Shown here one piece after another: positions 2,110 through 8,941 of a DNA stretch of 64,000 nt (positions within the stretch are counted from its first letter, which is position 1; the number at the start of each line of letters is the position of its first letter). The position numbers and the translations under genes were made by a program. The stretch is from positions 8,126 to 72,125 of the forward strand of contig JBJMLN010000121.1 of the NCBI GenBank assembly GCA_045805285.1, written 5' to 3'. Under the pieces are notes generated by a model that saw nothing but the letters and a program-made list of their open reading frames with translations, was not told the origin of the DNA and did not search any database. Origin of the DNA: Actinomycetota bacterium (GTDB lineage: Bacteria; Actinomycetota; UBA4738; JBJMLN01).

Positions 2110-3114
2110 ATGGACGCCTCCCCGACCCGCGCGCCGCTCGTCGACTCCTTCGATCGCGTCGCCGACGACCTCCGGGTCTCGGTAACGGACCGCTGCAACT
2201 TCCGCTGCACGTACTGCATGCCGGCGGAGGGCCTGGCGTGGCTCCCGAGATCGGAGATCCTGACGTTCGAGGAGATGACGCGCCTGCTCGGTGTGTTCCG
2301 GTCGCTCGGCGTGCGTTCGATCAAGGTGACGGGCGGGGAGCCGACCGTGCGCGCGGATCTCCCCAAGCTCGTCGGGATGTTCCGCGAGGCGGGGCCGGAG
2401 CTCGACATCTCCATGACGACGAACGGAACGCTCCTGGACCGGCTGGCCGAACCGCTCGCGCGCGCCGGCCTCGACCGCGTGTCGATCTCCTGCGACTCGC
2501 TCCTGCGTCACCGCTTCGCGGAAATGACGAGGCGCGACGCATTGGAGAAGGTCATGAACGGCGTCCGCGCGGCGGACGCGGCCGGCCTGACCCCGATCAA
2601 GATCAACTGCGTGCTGATCGGCGGTCAGAACGACGACGAGGTCGTGGAGTTCGCACGTTGGTCGCGCGAGACCGGACACCTCGTCCGGTTCATCGAGTAC
2701 ATGCCGCTCGACGCCGAGCACGCGTGGGAGCGCGCTAAGGTCGTTCCCTCGATCCAGGTGCTGGAGCGGATCGCCGCCGTGTTCCCGCTCGAGGCGACCG
2801 GCCATCCGGGCGATCCCGCGACGACCTACCGGTTCGCGGACGGCGCTCCCGGCGGGGTCGGCGTGATCGCCTCCGTCACCGAACCGTTCTGCGACACCTG
2901 CAACCGCCTGCGGCTGACGGCCGAGGGTCAGTTCCGCTCGTGTCTGTTCTCCCTCGACGAGGTGGATCTCCGCGGCCCGCTGCGCGCCGGCGCGGACGAC
3001 GACGAGCTGGCGGAGCTGATCCGCGGCGGTGTGGAGCGGAAGTGGGCCGGCCACCGGATCAATCACCCCGACTTCGTGCAGCCCGCGAAGAGCATGTCGA
3101 TGATCGGCGGCTGA
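2110..3114 (+). CDS. moaA: GTP 3',8-cyclase (radical SAM)
   Basis: [18 protein letters not shown] (CX3CX2C), TGGEP, C-terminal [10 protein letters not shown]...C, ends MSMIGG. Confidence 0.97.
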
Positions 3115-3120
3115 GCCGGC

Positions 3121-3834
3121 CTACAGGCCGGCGAGCTTCGCGAGGCCGTCCACGTTCGCCAGCACGTAGCGGCGACCGTCGCGGTCGATCAGTTTCCGGC
3201 GCTGGAAGTCGGAGAGGATCCGCGTGACGTTCTCCCGGCTCCCGCCGCAGAGGCTCGCGAGGTCCGCGTGCGTGACGACCGAGGGGATCACAGCTCCGTC
3301 GGACGGGAGCTCCTCCAGGTCGCTCACGAGGCCGAGGAGACGCTTCGCCACCCGGCCCTTCAGGTCGAGGAACAGCAGGTCGTCGACGAGGGACTCGTGA
3401 GCGGTCACCTGCCTCGCCAGCGCTCGTAGGAGCGCCCGTGACGCCGCCGGCTCCTTGGAGATGAAGCTCGCGAACGCGTCTCCGTCGACGACCCAGACCT
3501 CGGAGTCCACGAGCGCCATCGCCGTCGAGGTGCGTTTGAGGTCTCCGAGGACGCCGATCTCGCCGAAGAACTGCGAGCCCTCCAGCGTCGTCAGGAGCTG
3601 CCGGTGGCCGGTCGCGGAGAGGGAGCTCACCTCGACGCGGCCGTCGTGGAGGAAGAAGACCTCCGGAGCCTCGTCGCCCTGGTGGAACAGGTAGGTACCG
3701 CGCCGGTACTCCCGGACGGACCCGCGGCCGGCGAGCTGGCGCACCGACACCGCGGAGACGGATTCCATGATCGGGCTGCCGGACATCGCAGCCTCGATGC
3801 CCCGAAGCGCGGTTCCCCCCGTCCGCGTCGCCAC
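3121..3834 (-). CDS. Crp/Fnr family transcriptional regulator
   Basis: LFHQGD...FFGEIGVLGDLKRTST cNMP domain; THADLASLCGGSRENVTRILSDF HTH; TAGATT -10 six nt before GTG. Confidence 0.93.
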   Translation of the reverse strand: MATRTGGTALRGIEAAMSGSPIMESVSAVSVRQLAGRGSVREYRRGTYLFHQGDEAPEVFFLHDGRVEVSSLSATGHRQLLTTLEGSQFFGEIGVLGDLKRTSTAMALVDSEVWVVDGDAFASFISKEPAASRALLRALARQVTAHESLVDDLLFLDLKGRVAKRLLGLVSDLEELPSDGAVIPSVVTHADLASLCGGSRENVTRILSDFQRRKLIDRDGRRYVLANVDGLAKLAGL

Positions 3835-3916
3835 GGAGCGAATCTACCTGCGGGAACGGCTCGCGGGAAGCCCTCCTTGCGGACTCCGCCAAACGCAAAC
3901 GGGCACGCGGAACGCG

Positions 3917-3948
3917 AAAACGGGCCCGGGAGCGATCCCGAGCCCGTT
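3917..3948 (-). terminator. Rho-independent terminator after the tandem peptide genes
   Basis: Minus strand AACGGGCTCGGGA-TCGC-TCCCGGGCCCGTT stem-loop (one G:U pair) running into a T tract. Confidence 0.75.
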
Positions 3949-3966
3949 CCGAAAGCCTTTGCGCTC

Positions 3967-4089
3967 TTACCGAGCGTGGACCTTCTTGAAGGTCTTCCGC
4001 TTGGTCACCCGCGTCGCGGCGGTCTTCGCGGAGGACGTCTCCGCCTTCTCCGCGGCCGGCTTCGCCGGAGCGATCTTCTTCTGTGCCAT
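3967..4089 (-). CDS. 40-aa Lys-rich peptide B (MAQKKIAPAKPAAEKAETSSAKTAATRVTKRKTFKKVHAR)
   Basis: Below ORF-track cutoff; GAGGAGGG RBS, ATG..TAA, all Lys as AAG, clear paralogy to peptide A. Confidence 0.8.
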   Translation of the reverse strand: MAQKKIAPAKPAAEKAETSSAKTAATRVTKRKTFKKVHAR

Positions 4090-4146
4090 CCGAGTTCCCT
4101 CCTCGTCCCTGCTCGGTCGTGGTGCGGTGGTGCGGTTGTCGCGAAG

Positions 4147-4284
4147 CTACTTGTAGTGCGCCCTCTTCATGGTCTTCTTCTTGAGCGGGCGCTTCTTCGT
4201 CACGCGGCTCGCTGCGGCGGTGGCCGTGGACTTCGAGGCCTTGGAGCTCTCCGGCTTGGCCGGTGTGACCTTCTTGTCTGCCAT
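4147..4284 (-). CDS. 45-aa Lys-rich peptide A (MADKKVTPAKPESSKASKSTATAAASRVTKKRPLKKKTMKRAHYK)
   Basis: GGGGAGGT RBS before ATG 4284; C-terminal part of track ORF 4147..4362; paralog of peptide B. Confidence 0.8.
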   Translation of the reverse strand: MADKKVTPAKPESSKASKSTATAAASRVTKKRPLKKKTMKRAHYK

Positions 4285-4347
4285 CCTGGTGCACCTCCCC
4301 CTCGTCCGATCGCTGGTGTTATCCAACTCCTCCGCAGGGCAGAGGTG

Positions 4348-4409
4348 TGTGCCATCCGTCACGGGATGTGTGTGTTCTCCATCACGGCGATCCTGTGACG
4401 GGCGTCACA
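4348..4409. promoter_or_regulatory. Three CRP/GlxR-type boxes at 23-bp period
   Basis: TGTGC-CATCCG-TCACG (4348-4363), TGTGT-TCTCCA-TCACG (4371-4386), perfect TGTGA-CGGGCG-TCACA (4394-4409). Confidence 0.8.
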
Positions 4410-4414
4410 CGTGC

Positions 4415-4624
4415 TCAGTCGAGCTCCGGCAGGTCGATCGGGTCCGGCCGCGGGGTACAGGCGCCGCAGTAGAGCGCGTCCTCCACGACGAGCGCCTTCC
4501 GGACGTCCTTGCTGCGGAAGAGCTCGAGGATGTACGGCTGGGTCTCGACGTGGTCCTCGCAGATGCCGCGTCCGCAGAAACGGCACGCTCCGACCGCGGT
4601 TCGGCGGCAGTGCCAGCAATCCAT
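4415..4624 (-). CDS. 69-aa Cys/His-rich zinc-finger-like protein
   Basis: CWHC-x7-CRFC-x4-C-x2-H...CGAC; GGGAG RBS just after the upstream protease stop. Confidence 0.8.
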   Translation of the reverse strand: MDCWHCRRTAVGACRFCGRGICEDHVETQPYILELFRSKDVRKALVVEDALYCGACTPRPDPIDLPELD

Positions 4625-4636
4625 CTCCCGCTCCCC

Positions 4637-6937
4637 TCAGTTCGCCTGGACCCTGCTCAGGTTCACCTTCGTCTCCAGCGATCCCTTCCGGAACGCGTCG
4701 CCCACCAGCGCGTCGAAGCCCTCGCGGTCGAGACGGTACGCGCGAACCGGCGTCCGTGCTCGGACCGTCGCGGTGCGCGGCACGTCGAGGAGCAGCGCGA
4801 TCTCCCCGACGTAGGAGCCCGGCCCGACCGTTCCGACCTGCTCGCCGTCCTTGAGGACCTCCATCTGGCCCGAGCGGATCGCGTAGAAGGCGTCTCCGGC
4901 CTCGCCCTGCTCGATGATCGTCTCGCCGGGCGGGACGTTCACCCACTCCCCGTGCTCCAGGAGCTCGTTCAGCTCGTCGGGCTCCAGATGCGAGAAAGCC
5001 GAGAGCTCCCGGAGATCGTTCACGGCCTGCAACGTCGGCGCGAACTCCGGCACGTGGATCATGTCGGCGAGGAGACGATCGAACGTTCCCTTGTCGACCT
5101 CGAACAGCTGCGACTCCTCCGTGGCCCGGACGGTCGCCGCGCGCGGGGCGGCCTCGACGAGGCCGAGCTCGCCGAAGGACTCTCCGCGCGTGATCGTCCG
5201 CAGCACCCGCTCGTTCGCGCCGTTCGGGTCCTCCTCGACGATGTTGAGCGCTCCGGAGCGGACGACGTAGAAGGCGTCGGCGCGCTCTCCCTGGCGAACG
5301 ACCGGCTGTCCGGGGGCGAACGTCCGGAGCTTCACGCGGCCCGCGAGGTCGGAGAGCACGTCCTCCGGCACGTCGTCGAAGATCGGCAGCGCGTCGATCA
5401 GCTCCGCGGCCTCGACGCGCCACTTCGTCTCGAGCCTGAACCGCACGCGGTCCCCGAGGGCGCGGAGCCTCCTCGCCGCCGCCCTGACGAGCCCGATCGC
5501 GCCACGGACGAGCGGTCCCGCGATGAGGAGCGCGAGCAGCAGGAGGAACGCGCGGCCGAGGATGCCGCCGTTCCACATCTTTCCGAGGAGCCCGGCGAAG
5601 ATCTGCTTCCAGAAGAAGAACGACAGGTACAGCGAGAAGATCGTGAACGCGACGCCGAGGAGACCGTACAGACCGAGTCCCCATTCCTGCCTCGTGAAGC
5701 CTTCGCGCGTCCGGATCTTGTGCCACATGTCGTGCTGGATGAACGCGAGCGACCGCGGACGCAGATCCGGCACCTGGATCACGTCGGAGAGGATCCAGTA
5801 GCCGTCGAGCTCCAGGAGCGGAACGAGGTTCATGAAGATCACGAGGTAGCCGAGCACCGCGAACTGGTACAGCACCTTGGAGAGGAAGAAGTCCGGATAC
5901 GCCCACGCGATCATCGCGGCGATCCCCGCCATCACCGTCTCCGCGTATGGTCCGCCGAGCGCCTGCATGATCCGCTGGCGCCGCTCCAGCATCAGGCCGT
6001 CGGAGCCCTCCACGAAGAATGCGGGCGAGCCGAAATAGACCATGAACCCGGCGCTCTTCACCTGGCGGCCGTAGCGGAGCAGCACGATCGCGTGACCCAT
6101 CTCGTGGACGAAGGTGGAGACGTAGTCGAGGACCGTCAGCACGATGAAGGCGAGCGCCACCGTGCTGCCGCCGAGCGAGAAGCGGTGCGACTGCACGAGC
6201 TCCCAGAACGCCACGAACCCCGCGACGCAGATGCCGACGCTCACGATCTGGGCCGGCCACGTGAACCAGAGCTTGAGCCCGTGGTCGTAGAACCAGCGCA
6301 CGAACCCGTCGGCGTGGTCCCACTCGATCGAAAGCGTCTTCGCGAACCCGCGCAGCTTCTTCCGCGTCGCCGACGCGGGATCGAGCCGGTCGCGCACGAG
6401 CTGCTCGGAGTCGACGTAGGGCGTGGTGAGGAAGTTCCCGACGAGCAGCGCCTGGGTGATCTCCGCGACGCGGGTGAGCTCGAGGTCTCCGGATTCCTGG
6501 AACCGCTCGACGACAATCTCCTTCACGGTCCGCGTTCCGTCCATCAATCCGATGATGTCCGCAGCGTCCGCTTCGAACTGGTAGTGGATGATGTCGCGCG
6601 GGTTCGCGACCATCGTGTAGTCGTTGCCCCACTTGAGGCGAAAGACCTTGATCTCGATGTCCGGCGCGAGCTGCGGCCGGAACTCCGCTGGATCGACGAG
6701 CTCGGAGAGCCGCCCGTAGACGTCGCTCTCGACCTCCTCCTCGGGCGGGAGCTCCGCGAGACCGCCGATGGGAGCGCCCTTCCGCCCGTTCGGCGCCGCC
6801 ACGAGCCCCTTGCCGACCACGGCGTAGACGGAGTTCCGCGCGCGAGCCGCGGCGCGCCGGTGGGAGGCGAACAGGTTCCCGAAGATCACGCTCGCGAGCA
6901 GCACCAACGCGAGCGCCCCGACGATCGTTCCGACCAT
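4637..6937 (-). CDS. Membrane M50 metalloprotease with N-terminal PqqD/RRE-like domain and two C-terminal cNMP-binding domains
   Basis: LMDGTRTVKEIV (PqqD-like), HEMGH (HExxH), NLVPLLELDG (M50 NxxPxxxxDG), several TM helices, FGELGLVEAAPRAATV and VGEIALLLDVPRTATV phosphate-binding cassettes. Confidence 0.88.
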   Translation of the reverse strand: MVGTIVGALALVLLASVIFGNLFASHRRAAARARNSVYAVVGKGLVAAPNGRKGAPIGGLAELPPEEEVESDVYGRLSELVDPAEFRPQLAPDIEIKVFRLKWGNDYTMVANPRDIIHYQFEADAADIIGLMDGTRTVKEIVVERFQESGDLELTRVAEITQALLVGNFLTTPYVDSEQLVRDRLDPASATRKKLRGFAKTLSIEWDHADGFVRWFYDHGLKLWFTWPAQIVSVGICVAGFVAFWELVQSHRFSLGGSTVALAFIVLTVLDYVSTFVHEMGHAIVLLRYGRQVKSAGFMVYFGSPAFFVEGSDGLMLERRQRIMQALGGPYAETVMAGIAAMIAWAYPDFFLSKVLYQFAVLGYLVIFMNLVPLLELDGYWILSDVIQVPDLRPRSLAFIQHDMWHKIRTREGFTRQEWGLGLYGLLGVAFTIFSLYLSFFFWKQIFAGLLGKMWNGGILGRAFLLLLALLIAGPLVRGAIGLVRAAARRLRALGDRVRFRLETKWRVEAAELIDALPIFDDVPEDVLSDLAGRVKLRTFAPGQPVVRQGERADAFYVVRSGALNIVEEDPNGANERVLRTITRGESFGELGLVEAAPRAATVRATEESQLFEVDKGTFDRLLADMIHVPEFAPTLQAVNDLRELSAFSHLEPDELNELLEHGEWVNVPPGETIIEQGEAGDAFYAIRSGQMEVLKDGEQVGTVGPGSYVGEIALLLDVPRTATVRARTPVRAYRLDREGFDALVGDAFRKGSLETKVNLSRVQAN

Positions 6938-7012: not shown

Positions 7013-8941
7013 CTACCGGTTCTTGATGGCGACCGGCTCCACCGGATCGGCCAGCTCGAAGCCGAAGACCCGGGAGTAGAAATACAGCTCGGCCTCGAGC
7101 GTCCGCACGATCGTCTCCTGACGGCGGAATCCGTGTTGCTCTCCCTCGAAGGCGAGGTAGGCGTACGGAAGGCCCTTCTCCTCGAGGCTCCGGACCATCT
7201 GCTCCGCCTGCTCGGGAGGAACGACCTCGTCTTCCAGCCCCTGGAACAGGATCACCGGGCAGGACAGGCGCTCCGTGAAGTGGACCGGAGACCGCTCGCG
7301 GTACCGCTCCACCTCCTCCGGATACGGTCCGACGAGCCCGTCGAGGTAGCGCGACTCGAACTTGTGCGTGTCGCGCGCGAGCGCCTCCAGGTCACCGACG
7401 CCGTAGTAGCTCGCGCCCGCGGAGAACGCGTCGGTGAACGTCAGCGCGCAGAGCGTCGTGTAGCCGCCGGCGCTCCCGCCCGCGATCGCGAGGCGCGAGC
7501 CGTCGACGTCTCCGCGTTCGGCAAGGAACTTCGCCGCGTTCACGCAGTCGGCTAGGTCGACCTCTCCCCACCGGCCTCGGAGTCGGTTCCGGTACTCGCG
7601 GCCGTAGCCGGTGCTTCCTCCGTAGTTGACGTCGAGGACCGCGATCCCGCGCGTCGTCCAGTACTGGACCTCTAGGTCGAGCTCGTCGGAGACGTTCGAC
7701 GTCGGACCTCCGTGGCTGTGGACCACCAGAGGCGGACGCTCGTCCTCCGGCGCCGAGAACTCCGGGTTCCGGGGCGGATAGAAGAACGCGTGGGCGGTGT
7801 GGCCCTCCTCGGTCGGGAACTCGACCCGCTGTGCGGTGGAGAGGTATCGGTGGTCGAGGCTCCGCTCGCGGCCGCGGTAAAGGACCTCCGGCTCTCCGGC
7901 GGTGGGATCGAGCGCGAACACCGCGGGAAACTCCGACGCGGTGAGGCCGATCATCAGGATGCGCTCCCCGTCCGATCGGAGATACCGCGCGTCGACCGCG
8001 AGTCCGAGGTCGCGGAGCGGCTTCCCGGGCTCGACGAGCCCGAGATGGGACTCCCCGCCTTGCTCGAACGCGCACGCGATCCGTCGTCCGGAGAGGAACG
8101 AGTAGCGCGAGTACCCGAAGTTCCATGCCGGCAGTGCGAACTCCGCGTCGAGCGGGGCGAGCGCCGTCGCGTCTCCGTCGGCCTCGGTTCGGTACAGGTT
8201 CCACCAGCCGGTGCGGTCGGAGACGTAATGCAGCTCGCCCTCCGGACTCCATTCCGGTTGTGCGATCGATTCCTCGGGGCCGCCGGCGATGCGACGCGCT
8301 TCGTGGAGTCCGTGTTCGGGATCGAACGGCGCGACGGAGAGCTCCGTGCCGTCCCACGGCATCCGCGGGTGATCCCACGCGAGCCACGCGAGCTGGGTTC
8401 CGTCGGGGCTCAGCCGCGGGCTGGAGTAGAAATCGTGGCCACCGGTGAGCGTCCGAGGCTCGACACTGCCGTCGCTTGCGAGGATCGCAAGCTCGTTGAC
8501 CACGCCGTCGGGCTCGTGGCGCTCGCGGACGCAGATGAGCCAATTTCCGTCGGGCGTCGCGCGCATGTCGGCGTAGCGGATCGACGCGGGCGCCGGCGGC
8601 TGGGGCGTGATCGGACGCGGCTCGCCGTCGCCGTCCTGGCGATAGAGCCTCTGGTCGGCGAAGTTCGCGAAGAACGTCTGCGCGCCGTCGACGAGCACCG
8701 CTCCTCCGCCGTACTCGTGCACTCGGGTGCGGACGTTGAAGCCCTCGGGCGTGACGTCGGAGAGCGTTCCGTCAGCGTCGCGTCGCATCAGGACGGAGCG
8801 GCCGCCCTCCGTCGGGCGTCGCTGCAGCCAGAACAGCGAGCCGCCGGAGACCTGCAGTTCCGCGATCGATGCTCCGGCCTCCGCGACGACCGCTGCCGAG
8901 AGCGGAGAGCGCCAGGAGCCGTACGGAGCGCTCTCAACCAC
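7013..8941 (-). CDS. S9 family peptidase (acylaminoacyl/dipeptidyl peptidase)
   Basis: APYGSWRSP start, HGGP, GGSAGG nucleophile motif, FQGLEDEVV, EGEQHGFR. Confidence 0.95.
   Translation of the reverse strand: MVESAPYGSWRSPLSAAVVAEAGASIAELQVSGGSLFWLQRRPTEGGRSVLMRRDADGTLSDVTPEGFNVRTRVHEYGGGAVLVDGAQTFFANFADQRLYRQDGDGEPRPITPQPPAPASIRYADMRATPDGNWLICVRERHEPDGVVNELAILASDGSVEPRTLTGGHDFYSSPRLSPDGTQLAWLAWDHPRMPWDGTELSVAPFDPEHGLHEARRIAGGPEESIAQPEWSPEGELHYVSDRTGWWNLYRTEADGDATALAPLDAEFALPAWNFGYSRYSFLSGRRIACAFEQGGESHLGLVEPGKPLRDLGLAVDARYLRSDGERILMIGLTASEFPAVFALDPTAGEPEVLYRGRERSLDHRYLSTAQRVEFPTEEGHTAHAFFYPPRNPEFSAPEDERPPLVVHSHGGPTSNVSDELDLEVQYWTTRGIAVLDVNYGGSTGYGREYRNRLRGRWGEVDLADCVNAAKFLAERGDVDGSRLAIAGGSAGGYTTLCALTFTDAFSAGASYYGVGDLEALARDTHKFESRYLDGLVGPYPEEVERYRERSPVHFTERLSCPVILFQGLEDEVVPPEQAEQMVRSLEEKGLPYAYLAFEGEQHGFRRQETIVRTLEAELYFYSRVFGFELADPVEPVAIKNR

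Follow-up and report, generated by a model that had tools for sequence, protein, structure and literature searches.

A cassette in which a cyclic-nucleotide-binding membrane protease is combined with lysine-rich peptides and a Crp-type regulator is described here in a 64,000-nucleotide stretch of Actinomycetota DNA (contig JBJMLN010000121.1, positions 8,126 to 72,125), called the window throughout. It occupies positions 3121-6937 and comprises, all on the minus strand, the genes of a 766-aa membrane protease (4637-6937), a 69-aa cysteine-rich zinc-finger (ZnF) protein (4415-4624), two cationic peptides, A (45 aa, 4147-4284) and B (40 aa, 3967-4089), and a regulator of the Crp/Fnr family (3121-3834). 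The elements listed in a first-pass annotation of this DNA, which had been made from the sequence alone, were all found on this strand at these positions. There is good comparative evidence that the cassette is a functional module. The reading preferred here, held tentatively and just short of an even chance, is that uncultured soil Actinomycetota possess a conserved cyclic-nucleotide module of four genes, in which a Crp-driven peptide would be docked and cut by a protease tuned by cyclic nucleoside monophosphates (cNMPs). Taken alone, the enzyme-substrate link from protease to peptide is put at a little under one half.

The comparison covers 80 related genomic loci, identified below by L numbers where they have to be told apart. 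The subsets with enough flanking sequence for a given count comprise 77, 54, 51 or 50 loci; promoter boxes were counted in 71 loci and downstream hairpins in 70. The RNA evidence consists of contigs from four independent soil metatranscriptomes, whose depth is a rough measure of expression only. The GC content of the locus is about 69%.

The composition of the cassette is highly conserved. The ZnF gene lies directly after the protease gene in 77 of 77 loci, with 72-99% identity. The crp gene is present downstream of the peptide in 53 of 54 loci (55-71% identity), and the peptide itself is detected by a strict motif in 52 of 54, with one additional variant in L019. The flanks vary: a gene of the S9 peptidase family is found upstream in 20 of 51 loci and moaA downstream in 28 of 50. 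The first-pass annotation had made its proposal depend on finding lysine-rich open reading frames (ORFs), CRP boxes and crp next to homologous proteases; a scan of these neighbourhoods recovered crp, arrays of CRP boxes and the ORFs in practically all loci that had sufficient flank, even around a rearranged relative of 38% identity, and the proposal withstood this check. The same annotation had seen no tailoring enzyme in the vicinity and, indeed, neither a tailoring enzyme nor an exporter belongs to the conserved set.

Two loci are particularly informative. In L081 the same four genes are situated between trmD/rplS and rimM/ffh, another genomic context. L086, whose protease shares only 38% identity, likewise groups all four parts, though in a rearranged order: the protease and a 55-aa peptide (MEMPKKITP...RSTRSTRNTRSTR..., with (STR/NTR)n units) preceded by a CRP box are encoded on one strand, and ZnF-Crp on the other. 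The persistence of the set in a new context and after rearrangement argues for a functional module. The L081 protease and ZnF genes (L081:3281-5785) are broken by several frameshifts on a long-read contig. Two contigs of the metagenome-assembled genome (MAG) SMAG_U4612, L026 and L043, each carry a protease-ZnF-peptide-Crp set with different peptides, which could reflect two cassette copies in one genome or a mixed bin.

The protease is organized as an N-terminal transmembrane helix, a domain resembling a RiPP (peptide made by the ribosome and modified post-translationally) recognition element (RRE), a six-helix M50 core and two cNMP-binding domains (CNBs). More than 1293 clusters of homologs were retrieved by database search, all from uncultured Actinomycetota. 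The site-2-protease (S2P) core (5468..6265, minus strand) carries the motifs HEMGH (residues 278-282, with H278/E279/H282) and NLVPLLELDG (370-379, with N370...D378), both invariant among 22 homologs; PF02163 matches with 32.5 bits for a Pfam cutoff of 27.2, which places the core within the M50 family. In an AlphaFold2 (AF2) model of the protein, with a predicted local distance difference test (pLDDT) of 66.6, this core contains six long helices and a beta hairpin. The best NCBIfam family is daptide_HExxH (NF041824), matched over model positions 125-377 of 379 with 140.3 bits against a cutoff of 300; the YydH/LiaK family (NF058609) scores less, with 46.8 bits against a cutoff of 225.

The label of RRE (PqqD) given by the first-pass annotation to the domain at residues about 88-170 (6428..6676, minus strand; net charge -6) was not borne out by sequence profiles and is retained on the grounds of predicted fold. 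PF05402 gave no match in residues 1-200 of the protease even at E<=10, and a profile search of the PDB sequences returned no RRE, only chance matches to TIF1-alpha. Two AF2 models (pLDDT about 67) nevertheless predict a beta-beta-beta-alpha-alpha-alpha topology for residues 95-166, and the top seven Foldseek matches of this N-terminal domain in the PDB are all RRE/PqqD structures (5v1u, 5sxy, 5v1v and 6jx3 among them). These correspond to TbiB1 with its leader peptide, PqqD and lasso B1, with TM-scores by target of 0.63-0.68 and probabilities of 0.96-1.0. In addition, the homolog P0410, which can be aligned across the whole 431-aa core, passes PF05402 with 24.7 bits for a cutoff of 23.4. The RRE/PqqD fold of the N-terminal domain is thus supported at the fold level.

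The C-terminal part of the protease is formed by two tandem CNBs, A and B (4682..5389, minus strand), with the phosphate-binding cassettes FGELGLVEAAPRAATVRA and VGEIALLLDVPRTATVRA. Both are recognized by PF00027 (E 4.5e-46), and the Glu and Arg residues of the cassettes are invariant in both domains among the 22 homologs (FGELGL..PRAATVRA and VGEIAL..PRTATVRA). The best fold matches of the pair are the tandem CNB-A/B domains of the PKA and PKG regulatory subunits (E 1e-18, about 30% identity), and a fold search with the whole model returned CNB-domain proteins only. Since six long membrane helices separate them in the model, the RRE and the CNB pair would share the cytoplasmic side. The cassette of CNB-B (4682-5020) contains an invariant RTAT, and that of the first CNB an RAAT. 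A Thr following the cassette Arg is linked to cGMP preference in PKG, and the two domains might differ in ligand.

The ZnF gene starts 12 nt past the protease stop codon. Its product displays a CxxC-x7-CxxC-x4-CxxH...CxxC layout with eight Cys/His ligands and ends in an acidic C-terminus, PIDLPELD. The gene is also kept beside protease relatives of 30-38% identity. The 523 relatives of this small protein found in databases are all unnamed or labelled DUF2180, a few of them with a precomputed PF09947 label; on the ZnF of the window DUF2180 (PF09947) scores 22.2 bits, exactly at the cutoff, for residues 1-27 and profile positions 1-32 of 68. Compared with the PDB sequences, only weak similarities to the C5HCH domain of NSD3 and to the Rad50 zinc hook were observed.

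Peptide A is MADKKVTPAKPESSKASKSTATAAASRVTKKRPLKKKTMKRAHYK, with a net charge of +13, and its paralogue peptide B is MAQKKIAPAKPAAEKAETSSAKTAATRVTKRKTFKKVHAR, with a net charge of +10. Both ORFs are preceded by a strong GGAGG-type ribosome-binding site (RBS), and strong RBSs are found upstream of the peptide ORFs across the loci. The family alignment, in which peptide A takes its place, delineates a conserved N-terminus MAEKKI[S/T]PKAP, a spacer rich in Ala, Ser and Lys, a likewise conserved (A)ATRV(T/S)K motif and a hypervariable basic tail. The 290 database relatives are all designated as hypothetical and belong to no Pfam family. Over the AATRV motif, the entropy amounts to 0-0.5 bits at codon positions 1 and 2 and to 1.3-1.7 bits at position 3, a pattern which points to selection on the peptide as a protein. 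At least three tandem units are present in 34 of 74 distinct peptides (KRQT, RVK, VQK, KKLSH, RSAT, RKAP or SKALG, for example), and the tail units often repeat the RVTK motif, as in L037 with four copies of ATRVSK. Two tandem peptide genes are found in the window, L001, L051, L071 and L072.

The peptide genes are also expressed. RNA contigs of 216-343 nt fall exactly on positions 3959-4280 in the four soil metatranscriptomes, with no mismatches in three of them. The depth of this region, about 5-8, is the highest between 3000 and 7000, to be compared with 0-3 on crp and less than 1 over most of the protease gene. One contig covers both peptide genes. In nature the peptides are therefore transcribed, apparently on a common RNA. 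A real gene thus underlies the peptide: the two paralogous cationic peptides proposed by the first-pass annotation are corroborated by the variation of third codon positions, the strong RBS and the RNA contigs from soil.

Between the ZnF gene and peptide A lie three CRP boxes (4348-4409). The first (4394-4409) is a perfect TGTGA-N6-TCACA, and the two others (4371-4386 and 4348-4363) contain two mismatches each; they are 23 bp apart. Within the triple box put forward by the first-pass annotation, the single perfect box is not significant on its own, since 42% of the shuffles of the 64 kb contain at least one. The significance of the array comes instead from its conservation across loci. When up to two mismatches are allowed, the density of boxes over the 160 nt preceding the peptide exceeds that in the rest of the 71 loci 123-fold; 68 of these loci contain two to five boxes (mode 3), with a spacing of 23-24 bp in 109 of 126 cases. 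No CRP box was found upstream of the protease gene in the window. In E. coli class II/III CRP-dependent promoters and in actinobacterial Crp/GlxR regulons, TGTGA-N6-TCACA boxes are used and a proximal site near -41.5 replaces the -35 element. In the loci examined here, up to five sites abut at 23-24 bp, in non-integral helical turns; we know of no described promoter with such a layout.

A candidate -10 element, TTGGAT (4321-4326, minus strand), was read from the sequence 21 nt past the proximal box, and a (C/G)AnGAT hexamer of the actinobacterial -10 type is present 21-22 nt past this box in 57 of 71 loci. No -35 element is apparent, and a strict scan for sigma-70 consensus promoters found none. 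The position of the conserved -10-like hexamer would place the centre of the proximal box near -41.5, as in class II geometry, and the peptide promoter therefore looks Crp-activated, of class II. On the promoter side the RNA contigs reach position 4280. Many relatives (L032, L039, L042 and L052, for example) have a short GGCCC-loop-GGGCC hairpin that separates the presumed -10 from the RBS; the window has none, and its 5' untranslated region would be only about 30 nt long.

At the other end of the peptide transcript, a GC-rich hairpin (3917-3950, minus strand) with a 15-bp stem and a dG of -30.6 is followed by TTTTCG. Comparable hairpins are found 0-35 nt past the peptide stop codon in 69 of 70 loci, with a median dG of -33; the exception, L001, runs into a second peptide copy. 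Their stem sequences differ among loci and their T tract is usually weak. The hairpin of the window, whose T tract is short, was not called by a strict terminator scan. It is likely to act as a terminator or as a 3' stabiliser of the peptide transcript.

The regulator, for which the longest ORF encodes 237 aa, probably starts at the ATG at 3786, as suggested by alignments of homologs. With PF00027, PF13545 and PF00325 all above their cutoffs, it is a member of the Crp/Fnr family; its score for the equivalog of E. coli CRP is 78 bits against 266, so that it is not that ortholog. Its recognition helix, RENVTR, retains the R-E-x-x-x-R signature with which TGTGA is read by the E. coli protein.

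These components can be compared with several known systems. The closest of them is daptide biosynthesis, where the leader is removed by MpaP/DapP, a site-2 protease that carries an RRE as an N-terminal fusion (Ren et al. 2023, PMC10036551). The protease described here similarly carries an N-terminal RRE-fold domain on an intramembrane M50 core, with the daptide peptidases as its best family match, and, as in daptide clusters, it has short ORFs of the precursor type in its vicinity whose N-terminal motif is conserved. It differs by a score far under the family cutoff, by its two C-terminal CNBs and by an obligatory ZnF gene. The daptide genes for MpaB (DUF-RRE), MpaC, MpaD and MpaM, which include an oxidative decarboxylase, an aminotransferase and a methyltransferase (PMC10036551), are missing from the cassette. 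Daptide precursors have an ELExMEAP leader, an aliphatic core and a C-terminal Thr, none of which is seen in the peptides of the cassette; these are hydrophilic polycations whose last residue is K or R.

A second comparison is offered by YydH/EpeP/LiaK (NF058609) of Bacillus subtilis, also an M50 membrane protease with a small ribosomal peptide in the same locus. This enzyme matures the small peptide, and its cleavage is thought to be coupled to release. M50 enzymes are indeed able to process soluble RiPP peptides, and EpeP is thought both to cleave and to export (PMC10885120). In contrast with the epipeptide (YydF/EpeX) system, the conserved set contains neither the radical-SAM epimerase YydG nor an ABC transporter, and it possesses CNBs and a Crp control. 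In its logic the cassette resembles an RRE-guided leader peptidase system like those of daptides and the epipeptide, but it belongs to neither family: the equivalog cutoffs are not reached, and the tailoring genes that define these families are missing. From a regulatory point of view, a parallel is offered by nucleotide-sensing site-2 proteases such as SpoIVFB, an S2P with a cytoplasmic CBS domain that senses ATP and cleaves a dedicated client. Both proteins combine an S2P with a cytoplasmic nucleotide-binding regulatory domain; here, however, the sensor is a PKA-like tandem CNB pair instead of a CBS domain, and the recognition of the client would go via the RRE.

On the basis of these elements, the following mechanism can be proposed. 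Crp loaded with cAMP would bind the box array, with the proximal box at about -41.5 of a weak promoter reduced to a -10 element, and would thereby switch on a short, terminator-bounded transcript encoding one or two small polycationic peptides. The acidic cytoplasmic RRE-fold domain would dock the conserved N-terminal part of the peptide, their charges being complementary (-6 for the RRE versus +10 and +13 for the peptides), and the M50 active site would then cut the docked peptide. The PKA-like CNB pair, on the cytoplasmic side, may set the activity of the protease according to cAMP or cGMP, with the 69-aa ZnF protein as a partner or adaptor of the protease. The second messenger would in this way control not only how a protamine-like peptide is made but also how it is cut, whether for maturation or for removal; the target of this peptide would most likely be a polyanion (DNA, RNA or ribosome) or the membrane. 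The analysis shows the parts, how well they are conserved, selection of the translated type and transcription in soil; activation by Crp, docking of the peptide on the RRE, its cleavage, gating by cNMP and the target of the peptide are all inferred.

Several observations weigh against this mechanism. The RRE identity is based on a model of medium confidence (pLDDT 67) and on Foldseek E-values of only 1e-2 to 1.5e-1. In their extreme hydrophilicity the peptides differ from the usual S2P and daptide substrates. The ATRVTK motif, which could be taken for the junction between leader and core, is itself reiterated in many tails, and this suits a repetitive binding module more than a cleavage site between leader and core. 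The ZnF gene and the box array are separated in six loci by unrelated genes spanning 1.2-1.8 kb, and the peptide stays beside crp in each of them: the insert of L012 (8300-9700; similar in L014, L016, L025 and L029) encodes an HxlR regulator and an HtrA-like serine protease with a PDZ domain, and that of L061 (8340-9050) small membrane proteins. The tightest pairs are accordingly protease with ZnF and peptide with crp. L033 (3850-8151) is the only one of the loci with enough flank in which both peptide and crp are lacking, and its protease-ZnF pair is followed directly by nuoA/B/C/H of the nuo operon. Distant relatives of the protease (L085, L089 and L090, 30-34% identity) keep the ZnF gene right after it, beside genes for extracytoplasmic function (ECF) sigma and anti-sigma factors and with no lysine-rich peptide. 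Lastly, all the loci come from MAGs or metagenomes.

Many of these observations would be accommodated if the cassette consisted of two separate neighbouring cAMP units, an explanation that is considered unlikely but deserves the most attention among the alternatives. The peptide would then be an independent Crp-activated binder of the nucleoid or ribosome, comparable to histone H1 or protamines, and the protease-ZnF pair would cut another client such as the ZnF itself or a protein of the anti-sigma type. The association of the peptide with crp after gene insertion and the situation in L033 are in keeping with such a separation, as are the distant protease-ZnF pairs neighbouring ECF sigma and zf-HC2 anti-sigma genes. 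The tails, too, repeat basic units in which S/TPKK-like and RKAP-like motifs occur, and what they conserve is composition, not sequence. Two independent units would nevertheless hardly be expected to remain adjacent in 53 of 54 loci despite varying flanks, to be relocated together as in L081, or to survive as a set the rearrangement of L086 at 38% identity. Furthermore, an RRE fold implies that the client is a peptide bearing a conserved motif for its recognition, and the N-terminus of the peptide supplies one.

The distant relatives also provide a view of the evolution of this protease. As they lack the lysine-rich peptide and are found beside ECF sigma and anti-sigma genes, the ancestral client may be something else. 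In L085 (145-3435) and L089 (4001-8677), where the protease is 33-34% identical, genes for an ECF sigma factor and for a putative anti-sigma factor accompany the protease and ZnF genes in an operon-like arrangement, which suggests an RRE-guided cleavage of the latter. Some anti-sigma proteins located next to distant relatives have a C-terminal region weakly similar to PF14407; the putative anti-sigma factor of L089 is a zf-HC2 protein whose C-terminus weakly resembles this 'Frankia_peptide' family, and L089 also contains an M16 peptidase. In L088 (3269-9612), an RRE-M50 relative devoid of CNBs, which passes the Pfam PqqD family, directly follows two PF14407 'Frankia_peptide' genes of the precursor type; next comes the gene of a 1300-aa protein in which Guanylate_cyc, AAA_16 and SBP_bac_5 domains are combined. 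The first PF14407 peptide gene is preceded by a pair of CRP-like boxes (3153 and 3176) with a spacing of 23 bp. A 1073-aa relative with an extra insert before its CNB pair was found in L087 (5001-13222), next to ABC-2 transporter genes and an RND/HlyD-type adaptor. Since L087 belongs to a cluster labelled Zixibacteria, the RRE-M50-CNB architecture extends beyond Actinomycetota. As judged from these gene orders, protease and ZnF form a deep, obligatory pair, which peptide and Crp have joined in the clade of the window and in at least one sister clade.

A further possibility is that the peptide is exported to act as an antimicrobial or a signal, as a minimal RiPP-like bacteriocin whose leader would be removed by the protease and whose cationic tail would be released or exported onto the membranes of other cells. 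The closest characterized enzymes are indeed the leader peptidases of membrane-active peptides (daptides and the epipeptide processed by EpeP), the tails diverge fast, and some of them are classic cationic amphipathic repeats such as LKKLKKLKKL, KKMKKMKKM or four copies of GKRVL. This explanation is nevertheless improbable: the conserved set includes no tailoring enzyme, ABC exporter or immunity gene, and many tails contain no hydrophobic residues or contain Pro (repeats of KRQT, RSAT, KATH or RKAP), so that no amphipathic helix is possible. In addition, the cassette, with its ZnF conserved at 72-99% identity, seems to have been kept vertically as a core feature throughout a lineage, unlike bacteriocin loci. 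Finally, it is very improbable that the small ORF is a regulatory leader whose Lys/Arg-rich translation controls read-through into crp by attenuation at the hairpin: its co-oriented position immediately before crp, with an intervening strong hairpin in 69 of 70 loci, and the autoregulation of Crp that the CRP boxes would provide are suggestive, but leader peptides do not need the purifying selection seen on the N-terminal amino acids, five loci (the window included) contain two tandem copies, crp and peptide are on opposite strands in L086, and the peptide RNA of the metatranscriptomes is deeper than that of crp and stops before it.

The surroundings of the cassette in the window were inspected in the same manner. 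A gene of the S9 prolyl-oligopeptidase family (7013-8941, minus strand) lies co-oriented 75 nt upstream of the protease gene; its product comprises an N-terminal beta-propeller and is weakly similar to the lasso-peptide isopeptidase Atxe2 and to Dpp5. Conserved Pro residues are present in the peptides (SPKAP). The S9 peptidase was rejected as a part of the module, being upstream in only the 20 loci mentioned above and at a variable distance (0.3-2.4 kb). On the other side, moaA (2110-3114) is convergent to the cassette. Its candidacy as a radical-SAM tailoring enzyme of the RiPP type was discarded, given that it carries the Mob_synth_C domain of a true MoaA, that it is convergent and that it is present in little more than half of the loci counted. 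A defence system was rejected as well, the only PADLOC matches being to the CNB domains of Pycsar effectors, and Rfam gave no match in the region.

A literature search returned no paper on an M50 and cNMP-binding architecture, on an RRE-metalloprotease with lysine-rich precursors, or on the cassette itself. The CNB pair on an S2P, the obligatory ZnF partner, the array of Crp boxes and the polycationic repeat peptides are without precedent in the literature searched. The peptide family, with its conserved N-terminus and fast-evolving basic units, and the arrays of abutting Crp sites are each undescribed. All four parts of the cassette are small, and they can be tested jointly in a heterologous host.

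The proposed mechanism can be carried further, in a form that must be regarded as doubtful. The protease would be the first intramembrane protease gated by a second messenger, and its RRE would have been taken over for signalling in place of natural-product biosynthesis. By means of a multi-site Crp switch, cAMP would start the transcription of the peptide and, via the CNB pair and the ZnF, would open an S2P that docks this same peptide by its N-terminal motif and cuts it. The level or form of a polycation on the nucleoid, ribosome or membrane would be set in this way, for instance at the entry into or exit from starvation or dormancy, and in sister clades the same protease-ZnF pair would cut anti-sigma factors with a leader-like domain.

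RRE domains are taken to mark natural-product clusters of the RiPP type. The presence of an RRE in a lineage-wide signalling cassette without tailoring enzymes would widen the roles of these domains, and would call for caution in the prediction of RiPPs from RREs alone. As for site-2 proteases, their known modes of regulation are prior cleavage, PDZ domains and CBS/ATP domains. If the preferred reading is true, an S2P gated by cAMP or cGMP would represent a new coupling of a second messenger to irreversible proteolysis.

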